Origin: a virus
Taxonomy: Duplodnaviria > Caudoviricetes
IMG/VR virus record: IMGVR_UViG_3300012990_000003
Location: 1 to 50,864 of that record
DNA: 50,864 nucleotides
Strand: one strand, 5' to 3'
Positions 3,515-46,071 of the stretch are shown here, in pieces. Under the pieces are notes generated by a model. The model did no database searches and was not told the DNA's origin. It saw nothing but the letters and a program-made list of their open reading frames with translations. A program made the translations under genes and the position numbers. Position 1 is the first letter of the stretch; each line of letters opens with the position of its first letter.

Positions 3515-3955
3515 TTATGCCGCCTCTAAATCGCCAGCAAGTTCCCAGGTATCGGTATCTACTTTTACCAAAGACGCACTTGAATGCTGCGCACGAAGTA
3601 GAAGCGTTTGGGAAGTAGTAATAGTTACCCCGCCAGTTGCTACTACCGTAACTTGCCCCGCCCCTACCTGACGAATAAGGATCTGTGTCCCTACCGGAAA
3701 CGCGACAGAGGAATTCAGCGGAACGGTTAGGTTGCAGGCTGTACCCTTATTCATACGCACGTATTTTGTAGCATCACCAAGTACTAATGTATACGAATCT
3801 GTTTGCGTGTTAATCTCAACCGCACGGAAGGATAGAGAATCCCCCATATCTAGTAGTATACCCCTAACATCACTACCCGAAATCTCATTATTACCATTAG
3901 TGGTAATAGTATCCGTAATCAGAGTATCTAGCGCTGTTTCAGTTCTTTGTGTCAT
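3515..3955 (-). CDS. Virion fibre-associated protein
   Basis: NTQTDSYTLVLGDA...AFPVGTQILIRQVGAGQVT...WELAGDL module common in phage fibre genes; MTQRT N-terminus. Confidence 0.65.
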   Translation of the reverse strand: MTQRTETALDTLITDTITTNGNNEISGSDVRGILLDMGDSLSFRAVEINTQTDSYTLVLGDATKYVRMNKGTACNLTVPLNSSVAFPVGTQILIRQVGAGQVTVVATGGVTITTSQTLLLRAQHSSASLVKVDTDTWELAGDLEAA

Positions 3956-18105: not shown

Positions 18106-18134
18106 TTGCGATAGCTAGATAAATAGTATATCAT
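18106..18134 (+). promoter_or_regulatory. Sigma70-like promoter for the HNH gene
   Basis: TTGCGA-N17-TATCAT. Confidence 0.5.
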
Positions 18135-23078: not shown

Positions 23079-24260
23079 ATGCTTAAAATAATCGGCAAAC
23101 ACGACGACAACACTATCATGCAAGCGCGGAATGTGCTAGACAAAGGCGCAGATAAGTTCGTTCTTTGCGCAGATGGTCACATGGGATACGGTCACCCTAT
23201 CGGCGGCGTAGCGGCCTATAAGGGGAAAATCTCTATCTCTGGCGTAGGCTTCGATATCGCTTGCGGTAACATGGCTGTGAAGCTGCCAATCAAGGCGGCA
23301 GAAGTAAAGGATTGGGATGCAGTAGGCCGTGAAGTCTACTCGCAAGTGCCCTTCGGTGTAGGTCGTACTAACAAGACCCCCGTAGAGGCCGAATTTCTCG
23401 ATACCAGGGCCAATTGGGAGAATCCGGCTATCAAGGGGCTTAAAGATCTTGCAGCCTCTCAGCTAGGCACTGTGGGCTCAGGAAACCACTATGTAGACAT
23501 CTTCAAGGATGAAGAAGATTTCGTATGGGTAGGCGTTCACTTCGGCTCTCGCGGCTTAGGTCATAAGGCCACTACGCACTTCCTTAAGTACTTAGGCGCT
23601 AAGGACGGCATGGACTCTGATCCGTGCTTGGTAGACATGGACTCTGACATCGGTGAGGCCTATTTCGAGGCTATGAATCTTGGCGGGCTGTATGCGTATG
23701 CGGGCCGCGAATGGGTCTGCAAGACTGTGGCAGAGATTCTCTTAGGTAAGACGAACAATGGCTACTACCTCGATATGGTTCACAACCACCACAACTTTGC
23801 GTGGATCGAAGAGCATGCAGGCGAGAAATACTTCGTCGTTCGTAAAGGCTCTACTCCTGCCTTCCCTGACCAGAGATCCTTTATCGGATCTAACATGCTC
23901 GATCAGAGTGTGATTGTTCGTGGGCTAGACACCCCCGAAGCTAAAGAGAACATGTACTCCACCGTCCATGGTGCAGGAAGAATCATGTCTCGGACTAAAG
24001 CCGCCGGTAAGTTTAAGGGATGGGGAGCTAAGAAGGTTCGAGTAACCCCCGGTCTAATCGACGAGGACGAAATGAGAAAAGAGGCCGCCGCTAATGGCGT
24101 TCATCTGTTCGGTGCTGGCGCAGACGAAGCTCCCGGCTGCTATAAGAAACTGGATGAAGTCCTAGAGTTTCATAAGGACTCGGTAGCAGTGGAAACTCGC
24201 CTCACGCCCATCGTAGTTTGCATGGCTGGCGGCGATGTGGTTGATCCTTATAAAGATTAA
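23079..24260 (+). CDS. rtcB: RtcB RNA ligase
   Basis: DGHMGYGHPIGG, GFDIACG, QLGTVGSGNHY, HFGSRGLG, HNHHN, RKGST, HGAGRIMSR and DEAPGCYK motifs. Confidence 0.95.
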   Translation: MLKIIGKHDDNTIMQARNVLDKGADKFVLCADGHMGYGHPIGGVAAYKGKISISGVGFDIACGNMAVKLPIKAAEVKDWDAVGREVYSQVPFGVGRTNKTPVEAEFLDTRANWENPAIKGLKDLAASQLGTVGSGNHYVDIFKDEEDFVWVGVHFGSRGLGHKATTHFLKYLGAKDGMDSDPCLVDMDSDIGEAYFEAMNLGGLYAYAGREWVCKTVAEILLGKTNNGYYLDMVHNHHNFAWIEEHAGEKYFVVRKGSTPAFPDQRSFIGSNMLDQSVIVRGLDTPEAKENMYSTVHGAGRIMSRTKAAGKFKGWGAKKVRVTPGLIDEDEMRKEAAANGVHLFGAGADEAPGCYKKLDEVLEFHKDSVAVETRLTPIVVCMAGGDVVDPYKD

Positions 24261-25039: not shown

Positions 25040-25162
25040 ATGGCTTTCTACAAGAAAATACTATCTAAATTTACGCCTCTCAACGATAAACACTTAACCC
25101 GTATTTACGGAATTGCCCCCACACCCAACTCTAATCCTAAAGCAAAGGAAATTAAGAAATGA
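25040..25162 (+). CDS. 40-aa ORF translationally coupled to the amidoligase
   Basis: AAGGAG RBS; ATGA overlap with 25159. Confidence 0.5.
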   Translation: MAFYKKILSKFTPLNDKHLTRIYGIAPTPNSNPKAKEIKK

Positions 25163-26973
25163 CCGGAACAAAAGCAAAAACCCCCCCGCACTTCCTCACC
25201 CTGATCTCTGGCCCAACAGTAAAAGATATCGGCCCTGTTCTCTTCGCCCCGGCTAAGTCCGCAGCGGCAGTAGAGCGCGAAATGCTCGGCCATAAATACT
25301 ACTACAGCGGTTCAGTATGGGTCGTCCTCGCCCCTCTGTTCTATGCTACCTTCGAAGAGAAGCTGGAAGCAAAAGAATTTATTACCAGCCTGACGACATG
25401 TTCGTACGGCGATTTCACTCCGCGGCAATGTACGGAAGAAGTTGACGTCGAGTACTATACCGTCGAATTCGCAGGATTCTCCGGCGAAGGCGTAGAGAAA
25501 GAGCGCAATATCAATCTCGCTGCCTATACGGCAGAATACATCGACCACTTGGAAGAGTCCAATCGTCGCCCAGAATATTCCTTCGGGCACTCTTTCATGA
25601 AGTATAACAATAAGACCAACGTGTTCCTTGCCTCTCGCGTAGCTACTACGGTAACGTGCGGCATTACTGGCCGGGGCCTTACGGCTGCCGACCGTACCAC
25701 TACTTCTATGTACAACTCTAAAGACTTCTTCACTTCGAATGCGATACTCTCGAAACTTGGCTCCATGCGCGTCTTCGACTTGAATACTTCAGTGTCTAAG
25801 TTCGATCCGAATATCCCTAGCACTATCACGCTGGGCGATGGAACAATCATCACTAAAGGATTCGTCGAAGAAAACCCGGATCAATTCTTTACTTCGCCCC
25901 TTAGCGAGACTATCGCTCGTAAGGCTGTCGCAGTTACTCTGCACAGCGGTCTCGTAGTGTCGAAGGAAGATTTCTCTAAGTTCGGTTTCATCTGCAAAAT
26001 CTCGCAGGAGAAGCACCTCCTGAAAGATAACCCGCGCTCTGGCCATCGCGGTATCGCTGACGCGCACTACGTTCCTAAGTTTACGGAAGTCCTGCGCCCA
26101 CGCGAGTCGGATCCCCTGAATATCTTCGGGCACGTCAACCGCAGCGGAGAGCTTATTCCGGGGCAAATCCCGGCTAAGAAAGGTGACAAGAAAAACCGCG
26201 ACCTTTATCTCTCTATGGAGATTGAAGTCTTCGGGAAGGATGAAACTGCTTCGGCTAAGACTATCGTGGATATCGAAGCTAAACGCCTTGGCATCTGCGT
26301 GTCGGACGGATCCCTCCCTCGGAACGGATTTGAAGTTAAGACTATTCCTACCTACAAATCCTTCCCTGCGGATAAGATTGATGAACTTGTGGGCATATTC
26401 CAGAAGAATAAGATCGATGCTAACGAGAAATGCGGAGTTCACATTCACGTATCTCGCGCCGCGCTTTCAGAGCTACAGGTAGACCGGATCATGTCCTTTG
26501 TCTACTCCTACGGTAACCGCCTTCTGATTGAGAAGGTTGCTGGTCGCGCAGCTAACGAAGAGAACGTTCGTGAATACTGCAAATACGACCGCGCTAAAGA
26601 CCGGCTCTCTGTGAACGTACGGTACGGCAAGAATCAGATCAAGAAAGATTCTGATAAGTACTGCGCTGTCAACGCTCACAAAGAATATACTATCGAGTTC
26701 CGCCTCTTTGCAGGGACGGTCGATCCTGATCGCCTGAAAATGTACACGGATTTCGTTCGAGCCCTTATTGAATTTACTTCTGCCGGGGTATGCAATACTC
26801 CGTATAAAGAAGCAGCTCGGACCCGGGATTTCCTGGCGTTCCTTCTGGACGTTAAATCTAACCGCCGGAAAGAGTATCCGCACCTCATTAACTTCTTGGT
26901 AGGGGAAAAATTTCTGGACCGTAAATCTCGGTCAGAGAAGTCCGCGCCTACCAGTGTCGTGTCACAAGCCTAA
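25159..26973 (+). CDS. Putative amidoligase (COOH-NH2 ligase) with long N-terminal extension
   Basis: MEIEV...DGSL...GFEV...CGVHIHVSR...KYCAVN...TIEFRLFAGT. Confidence 0.85.
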   Translation: MTGTKAKTPPHFLTLISGPTVKDIGPVLFAPAKSAAAVEREMLGHKYYYSGSVWVVLAPLFYATFEEKLEAKEFITSLTTCSYGDFTPRQCTEEVDVEYYTVEFAGFSGEGVEKERNINLAAYTAEYIDHLEESNRRPEYSFGHSFMKYNNKTNVFLASRVATTVTCGITGRGLTAADRTTTSMYNSKDFFTSNAILSKLGSMRVFDLNTSVSKFDPNIPSTITLGDGTIITKGFVEENPDQFFTSPLSETIARKAVAVTLHSGLVVSKEDFSKFGFICKISQEKHLLKDNPRSGHRGIADAHYVPKFTEVLRPRESDPLNIFGHVNRSGELIPGQIPAKKGDKKNRDLYLSMEIEVFGKDETASAKTIVDIEAKRLGICVSDGSLPRNGFEVKTIPTYKSFPADKIDELVGIFQKNKIDANEKCGVHIHVSRAALSELQVDRIMSFVYSYGNRLLIEKVAGRAANEENVREYCKYDRAKDRLSVNVRYGKNQIKKDSDKYCAVNAHKEYTIEFRLFAGTVDPDRLKMYTDFVRALIEFTSAGVCNTPYKEAARTRDFLAFLLDVKSNRRKEYPHLINFLVGEKFLDRKSRSEKSAPTSVVSQA

Positions 26974-27015
26974 TTCATTCTCGTATCAATCTAGTAGTTA
27001 TAAGGAACATAGAAT

Positions 27016-28200
27016 ATGTGTCTAATCATTCAACGTAAGTCCGGCGAATTCGTCACTAAAGAATTCTTTCAAGACGTATTCGTTCGGAACAATGACGGCT
27101 GGGGGATCATGTGGATTTCCGGCACCGGAGAGCGTCGAAAAGTTAAGTCTAAGTCTGGCATGACTTTCGAAGGATTCTGGGAGACGTATCAATCTCTCGA
27201 GAACAACGATGTCGAGTGCATGATTCACTTCCGTATGAACACTCACGGCGATACTAACCTCGAAATGTGCCACCCATTCGAAGTGGCTCCTGGGGTATTC
27301 ATGATGCACAACGGGGTAGTAGATGTCCCGTTCGAGTACGACCAACGGAACTCCGATACTTGGGCCTTCGCAGAACTTATCGTTCGTCCTCTGCTGGATG
27401 GCGTAGACAAGGTTGATGAGGCGATTCGTTCGCCTATGTTCAAGCATATCATAAAGAAACTTATCGGTACTGGCAACCGTATGGTATTCATGGACAAGAA
27501 TGGTCCGGTATTCATGGAGACGAACAACTGGTCTAAGACTACTAAAGGCCTGATCGTTTCGAATGAATATGCTTACACCCTTGATAACCCGTCCAAAGTA
27601 AGCCGGTATACTCCCGCGTATCGTAGCAATGCTCACAATAACTATGGCTACGGTAACAGCGTATGGCCTGATTACGATACGACTGACTCGGAATACTACG
27701 GCTACAATAAAGGTAGTACGGCCCTTAGCACTGAAACCAAGACGGCGTACTGCGCCAGTCCATCAGTAACTACTAAACCTGATCCGGCGCTCATCCCTCC
27801 TCAATCTAAACTTACTCCAGAGAAGGGCTGCAACCCTGTAGTAGCTGTAGCTGTAGCAACTCCTACGGTTACTAAAGAAGTGAAAGAAAGTAATCTGATC
27901 ACGATGTTCTCTAGCGGAAGTTCCGCGGGGGGAAAGTCTGTTCCGCCAGAGGCAACAGCATCATCGCCAAGCGCAGAAGAAGAGCCTCCGCGGACAGAGG
28001 AAGAACCGGAGGAACTGGTGCTTGTAGGGACTGTGGCGGGAGCTGATTACGAGCGCAGTGAAATGGATATCGAACAGTACTGGGACGAATGCCTCTCATT
28101 CATTAAGAATGACGCAAGCGGAGAGTACGCGACTGAACTCGTATACTCTGACCCTGCCCTTGCAGCAGAACTTTTGTCATACGCAGCGGAATGGCACTAA
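27016..28200 (+). CDS. Class II (Ntn) glutamine amidotransferase
   Basis: N-terminal MC, NNDGWG, HFRMNTHG, CHPF, MHNG and SDT motifs; low-complexity C-terminal half. Confidence 0.9.
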   Translation: MCLIIQRKSGEFVTKEFFQDVFVRNNDGWGIMWISGTGERRKVKSKSGMTFEGFWETYQSLENNDVECMIHFRMNTHGDTNLEMCHPFEVAPGVFMMHNGVVDVPFEYDQRNSDTWAFAELIVRPLLDGVDKVDEAIRSPMFKHIIKKLIGTGNRMVFMDKNGPVFMETNNWSKTTKGLIVSNEYAYTLDNPSKVSRYTPAYRSNAHNNYGYGNSVWPDYDTTDSEYYGYNKGSTALSTETKTAYCASPSVTTKPDPALIPPQSKLTPEKGCNPVVAVAVATPTVTKEVKESNLITMFSSGSSAGGKSVPPEATASSPSAEEEPPRTEEEPEELVLVGTVAGADYERSEMDIEQYWDECLSFIKNDASGEYATELVYSDPALAAELLSYAAEWH

Positions 28201-28236
28201 TACTCTCTATCCCTGTGAAAGGAGGTACGTACAATC

Positions 28237-28593
28237 ATGGCCAATGATATCTTTTGGGCTAAGCTTAAATATACCGGTATTCCGGTTAGGGGGACAGAAG
28301 AACAACTTCACGAAGCTATGGATATAATGTTTTCTGAAGCGGGCCCCCAGGACTTAGACCGTTCGGAAGAACATGTAGAAATCGTTTATTCGGGACCCTA
28401 CGTAACGAATAACTTTGTCTATCTTGGCGGAGGATTTACTACTGCATATGAGTATACCATGTATGGTGGGTTCTCTTTACCCGCAGAACTAATAGTTAAA
28501 CTTTTCGAGAAACGTATGCCCGATGGCATTACTATACACCCTAACCAAGATTGGAGTGAGTTAGATCATGCGCTTAAGAGTGCTTCCGTATAA
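28237..28593 (+). CDS. HPN-motif small protein
   Basis: AAGGAGG RBS; KRMPDGITIHPNQDW. Confidence 0.7.
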   Translation: MANDIFWAKLKYTGIPVRGTEEQLHEAMDIMFSEAGPQDLDRSEEHVEIVYSGPYVTNNFVYLGGGFTTAYEYTMYGGFSLPAELIVKLFEKRMPDGITIHPNQDWSELDHALKSASV

Positions 28594-29347
28594 ATTGGCT
28601 TCTGCCTCTGCTAAGAATCTTGCGGCAGACTTGCGCTGCAAGCGTCTGTACCCTGACGAGCGTTCTCGCTTCCGCGCTAGACGGTCGGACATTATTGTTA
28701 ACTGGGGTCTCTCAGGCGGCCTCCCTCGCGGTCTTGAAGGGGCAGGAACTATTCTGAACCGACCAGAAAATGTCGCACTATCATCTGACAAGCTGCGCAT
28801 GTTGCAGCGGCTTACAGAACGTGGCATCCCTACACTGGAATTCACTACGGATAAAGGTGTAGTAGAAGGTTGGCTGGATGAAGGTAACTGCGTCTTTGCT
28901 CGTACCCTTCTCAACTCGCACTCTGGTCGCGGTATTATCGAACTCGATCCACAAGCTGAGGGGCATAGCGCCATCCCATACGCCCCTCTGTACACTAAAT
29001 ATATCAAGAAGAAACATGAATATCGCGTTCACGTTCTTCCTAACGGCAAGACAGAGATTCGTCAGAAGAGGAAGCGCAACGGCCTCGAGGAAGTAAACTC
29101 TAGAGTTCGCAATCACACTAACGGGTATAACTTCTGCAAAGAGTTATCCTTTAAACCAGATGATTTAGAGGCGGTAGCTATCGCGGCCACTAAAGCCCTC
29201 GGCCTAGACTTCGCTGCTCTCGATATTCTGTACAACGAACGCCTTAATAAGTGCTTCGTAATAGAGTCTAATTGCGCGCCCGGTTTGGAAAATTCAACTA
29301 TCCGGATGTACGGCGATGCCCTTCGCGAAAGGATATACAGAGTATGA
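28568..29347 (+). CDS. ATP-grasp ligase (RimK/glutathione synthetase-like)
   Basis: IVNWG, SDKL, HSGRGI, EYRVHV, ALGLDFAALD and ESNCAPGL motifs. Confidence 0.9.
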   Translation: MRLRVLPYKLASASAKNLAADLRCKRLYPDERSRFRARRSDIIVNWGLSGGLPRGLEGAGTILNRPENVALSSDKLRMLQRLTERGIPTLEFTTDKGVVEGWLDEGNCVFARTLLNSHSGRGIIELDPQAEGHSAIPYAPLYTKYIKKKHEYRVHVLPNGKTEIRQKRKRNGLEEVNSRVRNHTNGYNFCKELSFKPDDLEAVAIAATKALGLDFAALDILYNERLNKCFVIESNCAPGLENSTIRMYGDALRERIYRV

Positions 29348-31718: not shown

Positions 31719-31950
31719 TATGATCGTCGATTTTAGAGATAAAGCGAAAGAAACAGAACCCTGCGTATGGCAATGCAACTGCGGAAATTGTAGCACACAT
31801 GGAGAATAATGCGCGATGAACAAGAAATTTAGGTCTTTTATAACCCTTATCCTAATCCGACTAGCTAAGAAGACATGCATCTATGGCTGGACTCATGACT
31901 ATCTAGTGCGGGCAGAGGAGCAGGAACAGTGTATGGCCCTGCATGAATAA

Positions 31951-31968
31951 AGGCCCCTTTCGGGGCCT
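31951..31968. terminator. GC-rich hairpin, probable terminator
   Basis: AGGCCCC-tttc-GGGGCCT. Confidence 0.6.
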
Positions 31969-32110
31969 CTATCGTATCTATTTAAAGGAGAATTTCGTCT
32001 AACCTGTGCTTTCGCTTGGGTTAGGCTGCCATTCTCAAAGGGGCATTGTTATTGACTGCGATTAGATTAAGTATATCACGATTTCTTTGAATATACAAGG
32101 ATAAAATAAA

Positions 32111-32542
32111 ATGACTCAATATAAAGATGCTAAGGACATTGAGCCTGGAAACGTAGTGAAGTTGCGCTGCGGGACATTCTGCCTTGTGACGGAAGCCCAA
32201 GAGAGCGAATACGAATATGGCGAGGCTTCCGATGCCGCGATTCTTACGTTTAAGTTCCTTACTCCGTTTAAAGCAGGAGACGCCTATTTTATGGAAGATT
32301 CAGGGTATTACTACGGTAACAAAGCGTCTAACCGTACGAACGAGTTATGGCAAGAAGAAGATGCGCCATTAGTCTTCCTTCTAGGCTCGGTAGACCATAG
32401 AGATAAGGAGTTTGTAGATCTAGATATCGTGGAGATATTCGAATCAGAAGATCCTAACGCTAAAAGTGTAAAGTTTAATGAACAGAAATATAGTTATAAG
32501 GAGGGGCAAGAAAATGTACGCGGACATGCTGAAGGTTGGTAA
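32111..32542 (+). CDS. Hypothetical protein, tandem paralog A
   Basis: IEPGNVVKLRCG...WQEEDAPLVF...DIVEIFESEDPN. Confidence 0.75.
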   Translation: MTQYKDAKDIEPGNVVKLRCGTFCLVTEAQESEYEYGEASDAAILTFKFLTPFKAGDAYFMEDSGYYYGNKASNRTNELWQEEDAPLVFLLGSVDHRDKEFVDLDIVEIFESEDPNAKSVKFNEQKYSYKEGQENVRGHAEGW

Positions 32543-45037: not shown

Positions 45038-45667
45038 TTGAGAATTGAACTTGTAGGTGGCTTGGGTGTAGGTAAGACAGCAATGGCCCGTATCTTTGAA
45101 AAGTACGGAGTCACCCCTGTTTACGAAGACCTCAGCCAGATTAAATTTCTGCCAGAGTCGTATACGAATCCTGCTCTCTATGGATTCCCGGCTCAGTTAT
45201 CTTTCGCGATCAATAAATACGTTACGATGCCTAACGAAGACCCGAATAAGCTGTACGTCTACGATCAGGCTACCGCCACTAATAGAGCCTTTAATGCTCT
45301 GATGGCTGCTGATTCAGAGACACGAGCCCTGACTCGGGCCCTCTTCCAGCGTGCTGAGAAGGATCTTAACCCGCCGGACTATATCATTGATCTCTGGTGC
45401 AAGCCCGAGGTTGAACTAGAGCGCATCCGTGGTCGCGGCAGGGACTTCGAAAACGTAGACCTAGACTTCCTAAAGAATCTGCGGTGCCAGATTGATATAG
45501 AAGTAGAGGACGTAGTGGCTGCCTATGGATGTCACTATACCCAGGTTCATGTCTCTGATATGAATCTAGAGGACTATGAATCGTTTGTTATCAACTACTT
45601 ACTAGATAACGATCTAACTATGTTCTGCGATTTAGTTAATACTAAGCGGTTTGTTCAGCAAATGTAA
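45038..45667 (+). CDS. Deoxynucleoside kinase
   Basis: P-loop GGLGVGKT, QLSF, PDYIIDL and lid RIRGRGRDFE; TTG start after GAGGTGG. Confidence 0.85.
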   Translation: MRIELVGGLGVGKTAMARIFEKYGVTPVYEDLSQIKFLPESYTNPALYGFPAQLSFAINKYVTMPNEDPNKLYVYDQATATNRAFNALMAADSETRALTRALFQRAEKDLNPPDYIIDLWCKPEVELERIRGRGRDFENVDLDFLKNLRCQIDIEVEDVVAAYGCHYTQVHVSDMNLEDYESFVINYLLDNDLTMFCDLVNTKRFVQQM

Positions 45668-45678
45668 TGTGATATAAT
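45651..45678 (+). promoter_or_regulatory. Extended -10 promoter for the small RNA
   Basis: TGaTATAAT at 45670-45678, ending 8 nt before the RNA 5' end; weak -35 TTGTTC. Confidence 0.65.
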
Positions 45679-45686
45679 ATATAGAA

Positions 45687-45759
45687 GGGGTATAAACAGG
45701 ATAGACTGGAAGCTAACACTTCTCAGGACTCGGAGGGCAGTGCTCCGAATACTCCACCA
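45687..45759 (+). ncRNA. Minimal tmRNA-like RNA (tRNA-like domain only)
   Basis: Acceptor stem GGGGUAU/AUACUCC with G3-U70, A discriminator and CCA; stemless D loop AAACAGGAUAGAC; short hairpin; GAC linker; T arm UCGGAG-GGCAGUG-CUCCGA. Confidence 0.75.
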
Positions 45760-45786: not shown

Positions 45787-46071
45787 ATGACAGACAAAAA
45801 AAAGAAAAAACGTAAACCCTATAACGCTTCCACTGGTAGGGACTATAAAAGCGACTATGCCCAGTTCCAGGCCTCAGACTCTGCTAAAAAAGATAGGGCT
45901 TCCAGAAATTCGGCCCGTAGAGAAGCGGAGAAAGACGGTAAGGTTAGTAAGGGGGACGGCAAGGATATTGATCATTCTGACAGCAATCCTCGTAACAACA
46001 AGAAATCTAATCTGAAGGTTGTCTCTAAGAGTAAGAATCGGGGTAAAACCCGAAACGGTAAACGAGTGTAG
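45787..46071 (+). CDS. Small basic HNH-motif protein
   Basis: RDYK...RASRNSARR...KGDGKDIDH...N...NLKVVS.SKNR. Confidence 0.75.
   Translation: MTDKKKKKRKPYNASTGRDYKSDYAQFQASDSAKKDRASRNSARREAEKDGKVSKGDGKDIDHSDSNPRNNKKSNLKVVSKSKNRGKTRNGKRV

Follow-up and report, generated by a model that had tools for sequence, protein, structure and literature searches.

A phage tmRNA tRNA-like domain and a distant tag frame as a candidate for a fully split tmRNA

Introduction

To our knowledge, in all tagging tmRNAs described so far the tag template is held on the aminoacylated head, either covalently or by base pairing. AlaRS reads G3-U70 and A73 in the tRNA-like domain (TLD) of this head, and SmpB binds the TLD elbow. 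The complex of alanyl-TLD, SmpB and EF-Tu binds stalled ribosomes (PMC3968760). At the resume codon, SmpB reads positions -6 to +1, and it bridges the TLD and the tag region (PMC3985003). The tag frame itself has no start codon (PMC8012679), and the last three tmRNA pseudoknots are dispensable in vitro (PMC3985003). Three tmRNA gene forms are distinguished in PMC11915505, together with entries that lack a tag coding sequence (CDS).

Several described systems resemble the locus examined here, which lies in a 50,864-nt stretch of a Caudoviricetes genome (IMGVR_UViG_3300012990_000003, hereafter the window). Mycobacteriophage DS6A encodes a TLD-only tmRNA, and such a molecule inhibits the host tmRNA (PMC4131195, PMC11915505). 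Like the window element, the DS6A molecule is a phage-borne, unpermuted, one-piece TLD with G3-U70, a stemless D loop, a closed middle helix and a T arm. It is, however, 83 nt long, its loop is of the standard type with 13 nt and its middle helix has two tiers, whereas the window TLD has 73 nt and is of the alpha type; and while a tag profile gives at best 1.5 bits in DS6A, the window genome holds a separate tag frame with statistical support. Permuted phage tmRNAs are also known (PMC9004378), and we find examples in Mesorhizobium phage Cp1R7A-A1 and Erythrobacter phage vB_EliS-L02. The permuted, two-piece tmRNAs of Alphaproteobacteria and their phages (RF01849, RF04321) share with the window their D- and T-loop sequence, ANDN...AA-type tags, the resume context and the division into two RNAs, and with the window's relatives a 3′ GCAACAGAA hairpin. 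In those tmRNAs a single precursor yields both pieces, which the acceptor stem and helix 2 keep together, but the window TLD pairs only internally, and the window tag piece has neither a 5′ acceptor half nor a pseudoknot, and modules of this kind can be kilobases distant and on either strand.

CDS-less organellar tmRNAs, namely those of jakobid and oomycete mitochondria (RF02544) and the ~65-bp plastid genes of Mallomonadaceae, are likewise reduced to the TLD, and that of Jakoba libera is described as "re-permuted" to one piece (PMC11915505), as we infer for the window TLD. They differ in being organellar and in that no tag frame is reported for them; the RF02544 model also misses the window TLD. 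Standard one-piece tmRNA (RF00023) has the same TLD architecture and 5′-to-3′ order, but between its TLD halves the window has neither a tag nor pseudoknots. The literature on mini, phage, split and trans-acting tmRNAs, in the text available, yielded DS6A and permuted phage tmRNAs but no unlinked form, and the nine "standard, no CDS" entries of PMC11915505 may add phage cases. Host tmRNA fragments bound by a phage anti-CRISPR (PMC11662646) are a different phenomenon.

Results

The window element is a real tmRNA TLD, self-contained and unpermuted (Table 1). Its minimum free energy is -22.8 kcal/mol (z -2.4; as good in 3 of 200 shuffles), and a TLD descriptor has a single match in the window and none in 60 shuffles. 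Sequence and fold agree with a previous sequence-only reading on the acceptor stem with G3-U70, the bulged helix, the GAC linker, the T arm, the ACCA end and an extended -10 box, TGATATAAT, 8 nt upstream of the TLD; the stemless loop counted there as 13 nt is in fact 12 nt long, since C45706 had been counted twice. TGnTATAAT also stands 5′ of the TLD in the relative L003 and in a variant from run X1, although the motif is not rare by itself (four in the window versus 2.5 by chance), and a sigma-70 scanner did not call the TLD site. Only a 21-nt hairpin separates the TLD halves, with neither tag frame nor pseudoknots there, and no second 5′ acceptor half was found within 450 nt of any of 12 TLD copies (300 nt for L300).

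Table 1 Features of the TLD and tag loci in the window
Feature	Position	Strand	Basis
Self-contained tmRNA tRNA-like domain (TLD), 73 nt	45687..45759	+	fold, covariation, identity test
TLD acceptor stem, 7 bp, G3-U70 = G45689-U45753	45687-93/45749-55	+	fold
TLD D loop, stemless, 12 nt	45694-45705	+	fold
TLD middle helix, one-base 3′ bulge, loop CUAACA	45706-45726	+	fold
TLD GAC linker	45727-29	+	sequence
TLD T arm, 6-bp stem, loop GGCAGUG	45730-45748	+	fold
TLD ACCA end	45756-59	+	sequence
TLD promoter-like site: TTGTTC, 16 nt, extended -10 TGATATAAT (45670-45678)	45651..45678	+	sequence
Deoxynucleoside kinase (dNK) gene, 5′ flank of TLD	45038..45667	+	Pfam dNK E 6.5e-12; syntenic in L003
Small HNH-like ORF, 3′ flank of TLD	45787..46071	+	Pfam HNH_3 E 3.1e-6
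Start-codon-less tag frame GCA ... GCA GCC TAA, AVNNNAPLRMAA then stop	32021..32059	-	rule scan, independent profile
Tag promoter-like site: TTGTAT, 17 nt, -10 TATACT within TGATATACT (32078-32070)	32070..32098	-	sequence
Resume-codon context CUAAUC before GCA	32060..32065	-	sequence comparison
Predicted helix across stop codon (H5-like)	31988..32036	-	fold
12-bp GAAA hairpin, likely terminator	31946..31973	-	fold

The D loop equals the alpha_tmRNA consensus at 10 of 12 positions, and Rfam ranks alpha_tmRNA highest, with a match on the T arm (13.3 bits, E 0.014). This outcome of the Rfam and ARAGORN check proposed earlier sits far below the gathering cut-offs: RF01849 and RF04321 score 13.3 and 7.4 bits against cut-offs of 50 and 47, RF00023 and RF02544 give no match, ARAGORN calls nothing at this site, and no tRNA model is among the Rfam matches listed. 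Other alpha-type TLD copies score 38-44 bits with RF00023. Just upstream of the TLD of L188, at L492:669-844 on the minus strand, lies a manA RNA motif match (47.6 bits, below cut-off). The window TLD would be predicted to be alanylated and to bind SmpB and EF-Tu.

The window record is 71% complete and encodes portal, terminase, DNA polymerase, primase/helicase, RtcB, amidoligase and PhoH proteins. The RtcB RNA ligase, amidoligase and RimK-like ATP-grasp genes lie at 23079-24260 and 25159-29347, and DS6A encodes an RtcB-like ligase as well. The best tblastn matches are in Pelagibacter, Celeribacter and Roseobacter phages (31-46% identity), which together with the RNA motifs weakly hints at an alphaproteobacterial host. 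An attP site or excision remnant was rejected as an explanation of the element, as both TLD halves are there with covariation; no integrase was found among 31 window proteins scanned from this incomplete record.

The gap between the dNK and HNH-like genes holds a syntenic 67-nt element in L003 (2919-2985), which was reached via the HNH-like protein. Most positions differ, yet all stems are kept by compensatory changes, along with G3-U70, GGAUAGAC, GAC and the upstream TGnTATAAT. The earlier identification of an unpermuted tmRNA TLD with alanine identity and D-loop and GAC signatures is thus upheld, with the covariation sought at this very gap. Its description of the T loop as alpha-type fits the window TLD but does not extend to L003, which has TTCGATT, so that the alpha-type T loop is not essential. 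L001 and L002 carry identical TLD copies. A third variant, in run X1, has the compensatory T-stem change 45734A>G with 45744T>C; it comes from one contig at depth 5.3, in a run that is possibly the source sample. Runs X5 and X6 cover neither the TLD nor the tag module, and the TLD is absent from all 33 loci with distant homologues of the HNH-like ORF.

A first viral search pattern, which fixed the unpaired motifs, G1, G3, U70, C72 and ACCA, gave 36 matches. Half of these have 7/7 acceptor and 5/5 T-stem pairs; the other 18 have clearly fewer and were dropped as chance (stems absent). The same pattern yielded at least two good TLDs in metagenomes, where 118 of the 120 matches listed were dropped on the same ground. 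Removal of duplicates and of L165/171/174, which were left out of alignment A4 because a complete permuted gene comes next, leaves 12 distinct copies. Across them 98.8% of cells are paired, with double changes at 12 of 15 pairs, which none of 500 shuffles matches; the bulged middle helix covaries too (96.2% paired), and all three helices thus covary. We discounted the invariance of G3-U70 in this alignment, which the pattern had demanded, and repeated the search without it: 9 of 18 matches have full stems (7 distinct, none new), and all nine have G3-U70, A73 and the 12-nt loop. The D-loop GGAU.GAC-type motif was likewise part of the search patterns, but is kept too in L003, found via protein synteny. 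These substitution patterns indicate that the TLD is under selection. The middle hairpin loop varies from 3 to 9 nt with no common sequence in 11 of the 12 copies (no hairpin is predicted in the twelfth), and hence there is no anticodon.

A TLD model built from these copies detects the DS6A TLD, located by Rfam at JN698994 28478-28560, at 36.5 bits; the first TLD descriptor had missed it. A scan for alpha-type T arms covered 3 of 64 parts, with ~3000 stretches estimated; among the 120 listed, 91 have a downstream 5′ half and none is an unpermuted mini-TLD. Against cultured phages, blastn with the TLD gave nothing beyond short chance matches, and of three split-type loci two had no match, while the third matched two ordinary permuted tmRNAs and nothing else; the search thus revealed no carrier among cultured phages.

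The sequence-only reading had the element lack a tag frame. This holds for the 73-nt RNA and the next 450 nt but not for the genome, where a tag frame outside long ORFs (32059-32021, minus strand) lies 13,627 nt distant on the strand opposite to the TLD. Its -10 region, TGATATACT, ends 10 nt before the resume codon GCA and is 8/9 identical to the TLD box; a promoter scanner called a different, overlapping site at 32119-32090. The sequence before GCA resembles the Rfam permuted-tmRNA consensus UAAaU|GCa and the contexts of permuted phage tmRNAs. A rule scan of the window gives this one match, and 2 of 300 shuffles contain a match, the rule having been written after the module was seen. A tag profile was built from 55 tags of full permuted phage tmRNAs only and includes no promoter term. 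It scores the window frame at 18.2 bits, rank 1 of 24,100 candidates (next 12.2) and above 60 of 60 shuffles (maximum 16.8 bits). The fold of 31940-32066 on the minus strand has a z of -3.7 (0 of 200 shuffles), with much of the energy supplied by the next hairpin. This 12-bp hairpin may also, or instead, serve a converging plus-strand ORF that ends at 31950, and a terminator scanner does not call it.

Among the modules described below, that of the window is the weakest kind of case. Its tag has Val instead of Asn at position 2, the GCAACAGAA hairpin present in 6 of the 9 other modules is missing, and an antisense frame of 59 codons, with a TTG start, has the tag frame as its 3′ end. No homologue of the module was found, the relative L003 spanning just 16.6 kb, and the contigs show no variant letters there. 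A search of the window for the GGCAACAGAA motif was uninformative. The 71 nt that include the tag promoter (32070-32140), single-copy in the window, recur in another sequence with different flanks on both sides that is far more abundant in run X2, and may be a promoter cassette common to related phages. Extended -10 boxes also occur on the minus strand at 18133, 16122, 13644, 12561 and 4474; the first is another TGATATACT, 17 nt behind a perfect TTGACA. Some of them oppose the local gene direction, and they are possible antisense or small-RNA promoters.

Weak Rfam alpha_tmRNA matches 3′ of several alpha-type TLDs led to tag frames there. These modules consist of an ANDN...AA frame with stop and a resume context, without a second 5′ acceptor half, and are found at 10 of 12 alpha-type TLDs; the two TLDs without one are on fragments of 16.6 kb and 5.3 kb. 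The distances between TLD and module are 21, 21, 39, 41, 46, 119, 184, 956, 4448 and 13,627 nt, and at 956 nt several ORFs intervene between the CCA end and the tag. Eight of the 10 modules have a -10 or late-promoter-like box whose end lies 9-10 nt ahead of the resume codon; in L158/L169 this gap is 6 nt. Sister tags stay in frame, and a frameshift between L162 and L182 is compensated before the terminal SLAA and stop. Complete genomes served as an out-of-sample prediction test: G010 has no module next to its TLD, and the scan then found ANDNSNMDYALAA with stop (35 bits) on the far side of a tRNA cluster, 4.4 kb from the TLD, without a 5′ half and with the UAAUC|GCA context of the window module.

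None of 210 control loci (822 kb; 46 standard-type viral, 13 MAG, 33 distant HNH and 118 noise loci) reaches 14 bits, a line chosen after seeing the matches; their best score is 10.8. The profile reaches at best 1.5 bits in the DS6A genome and 4.5 in the complete 118-kb phage G011. The 10.8-bit match is a tag-like ADNPMPRTTRVPLAA with stop at L328/L348:3176 (+), ~90 nt from a standard-type TLD and on the opposite strand; it is under the 14-bit line and possibly a divergent module. A base-paired tether between TLD and tag RNA was considered and rejected: in cofolding, a TLD is predicted to bind its own tag RNA no better than another (cognate and non-cognate both -3.17 kcal/mol), and the longest predicted complementarity between the halves is 5-7 nt.

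The alpha-type TLDs thus mostly appear to be accompanied by a tag gene hidden from ARAGORN and Rfam, which changes how "TLD-only" phage genes of this type are read. The earlier suggestion of a tag-free rescue RNA that spares phage proteins is not supported, given the separate AA-stop tag frame of this genome and the modules that accompany 10 of 12 alpha-type TLDs. The accompanying idea of an SmpB decoy has a published precedent in DS6A that had not been named (PMC4131195, PMC11915505).

Tag-less TLDs are nonetheless a known and common kind, and the window TLD alone would be ordinary. With a standard-type pattern all 42 viral matches were true (35 distinct, 68-89 nt); a third pattern gave 8 true ones of 20, and GTDB genomes 15 of 96. 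The phage loci (L318-L359, L364, L372, L375, L376) form a widespread TLD-only class, often in tRNA clusters, with a common AAA.CC...GG inner hairpin like that of DS6A, and some reach the RF00023 cut-off. This DS6A-like class appears to be truly tag-less, judging by the profile.

Discussion

We propose, with a probability of roughly 0.55, that the TLD and the distant tag frame make up a fully split tmRNA that tags in trans via host SmpB. Both elements are present, conserved and co-occurring, and no base-pairing between them is predicted. Since a start-codon-less frame can be read only by resumption, its conservation behind a promoter points to trans-translation, and the phage TLD is most simply inferred as its partner. 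No smpB was found in five phage records searched, four of them complete, which is why host SmpB would be used. The TLD and tag RNA would each be transcribed from its own extended -10 promoter. After maturation by RNase P and 3′ trimming, the TLD would be charged by host AlaRS and delivered by host SmpB and EF-Tu to non-stop ribosomes. After peptidyl transfer and then translocation, the empty mRNA channel would accept the tag RNA, free and nearly leaderless, with SmpB setting the frame via the few bases before GCA; the AA-ending tag would be appended, the stop codon would free the ribosome, and the protein would be degraded. The two RNAs are predicted to meet on the ribosome only, and the likely benefit would be phage-controlled ribosome rescue during infection.

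The likely origin is a permuted, alphaproteobacterial-type phage tmRNA in which the 5′ half was duplicated before the acceptor piece; the original 5′ half and the pseudoknot region would then have been lost, and the two genes would have drifted apart. L165, L171 and L174 are candidates for an intermediate state. They carry a near-identical extra 5′ half before a complete permuted tmRNA, in the exonuclease-SSB position that the split L158 also occupies, and loss of the original 5′ half from such a locus would give the split form. This partial tandem duplication (L165:3800-4350, also L171 and L174) runs in the order decayed acceptor fragment, extra 5′ half, acceptor piece, spacer and coding piece with tag ANDNYAPRLALAA.

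That such an arrangement would constitute a fourth tmRNA gene form, in which aminoacylated head and tag template have no physical link and SmpB sets the frame on a free, nearly leaderless RNA, here from genes 13.6 kb apart on opposite strands, we regard as an even bet. If true, a tRNA-like part could act on a tag template that is not joined to it, template switching would require neither the pseudoknot ring nor helix 2, and the question of how the resume frame is set would become testable with just two short RNAs. The window adds the most distant and opposite-strand case, and a class split between alpha-type TLDs with a module and standard-type TLDs with none. Some findings weigh against this proposal. 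A gap of 9-10 nt between box and codon leaves a leader of ~3-4 nt, shorter than the -6 to +1 determinant, and with 6 nt, as in L158/L169, the TLD precursor would have to supply the tag RNA. With no evident tether, frame setting in trans would depend on concentration and SmpB alone, and the literature yielded no precedent for resumption on a free RNA. Tag-less standard-type TLDs are common (35 distinct sequences), so a TLD can persist without a tag partner, and the window TLD may act as a decoy, alone or alongside tagging.

If the decoy reading alone held, the window would be an ordinary DS6A-like case: the TLD would bind host SmpB and lower host trans-translation, and the modules would be leftovers of an ancestral permuted gene, the window's being one leftover or chance. 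TLD-only molecules inhibit tmRNA whether chargeable or not (as cited in PMC4131195 and PMC11915505), module-less standard-type TLDs are widespread (42 of 42 matches), host SmpB would have to be shared, none of the five phage records searched encoding SmpB, and no tether is predicted to join the halves. It would be surprising, however, if leftovers had retained frame, AA-stop, resume context and their own promoter-like boxes in about seven lineages, or had survived relocation by 1 to 13.6 kb, and G3-U70 and A73 are kept although titration, according to the cited result, needs neither; we consider this competitor, the main rival, rather unlikely. A rescue without tagging, in which the TLD takes the chain (plus one Ala) and the complex is then freed through drop-off, by Pth or by an ArfB-like factor, a route suggested for mitochondrial tmRNA, would suit the retained alanine identity and the coexistence of CDS-less mitochondrial and plastid tmRNAs with SmpB (PMC11915505). 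G011, a complete phage with a tag-less TLD, also has a 117-aa RF-1-domain ORF, possibly ArfB-like (G011:C1:21305-21520, minus strand). This route leaves the tag modules unexplained, and with no RF-1-domain gene found in the 71% complete window record it seems improbable.

The tag RNA might instead work with the host tmRNA head and re-tag host rescue events, leaving the phage TLD a separate job. Although no sequence feature ties the tag RNA to its own TLD and the two genes are unlinked in the window, modules accompany alpha-type TLDs (10/12) and none of the control loci, and the attached tag region of host tmRNA should win over a free one; we would give such an arrangement little credence. Least credible is a D-armless tRNA with an AAC anticodon, a decoy for anticodon nucleases or simply a mark for RNase P processing. 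The ends are tRNA-like, the phage has an RtcB RNA-repair ligase, and some TLDs lie in phage tRNA clusters. Against this stand a loop conserved in neither length nor sequence, no tRNA model among the matches listed, a D loop close to the alpha_tmRNA consensus and an alternative fold of -16.6 rather than -22.8 kcal/mol; the 7-nt anticodon-like loop put forward in the sequence-only reading costs 6.2 kcal/mol and brings an A-C mismatch, and is rejected.

TLDs in bacterial genomes

Standard-type, 81-nt TLD-only genes were also found in MAGs of Victivallales/Lentisphaeria, which can carry several copies each (L407:3001-3081 and 3706-3786, L412, L414, L411, L415, L425, L431, L450, L386 and L472). All five such genomes tested have a full ssrA and smpB as well. 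PADLOC gave nothing useful on the Victivallales neighbours. The TLD genes sit inside vWA - PP2C phosphatase - kinase gene clusters, which we take to be TerY-P-like, a candidate defence locus rather than a phage.
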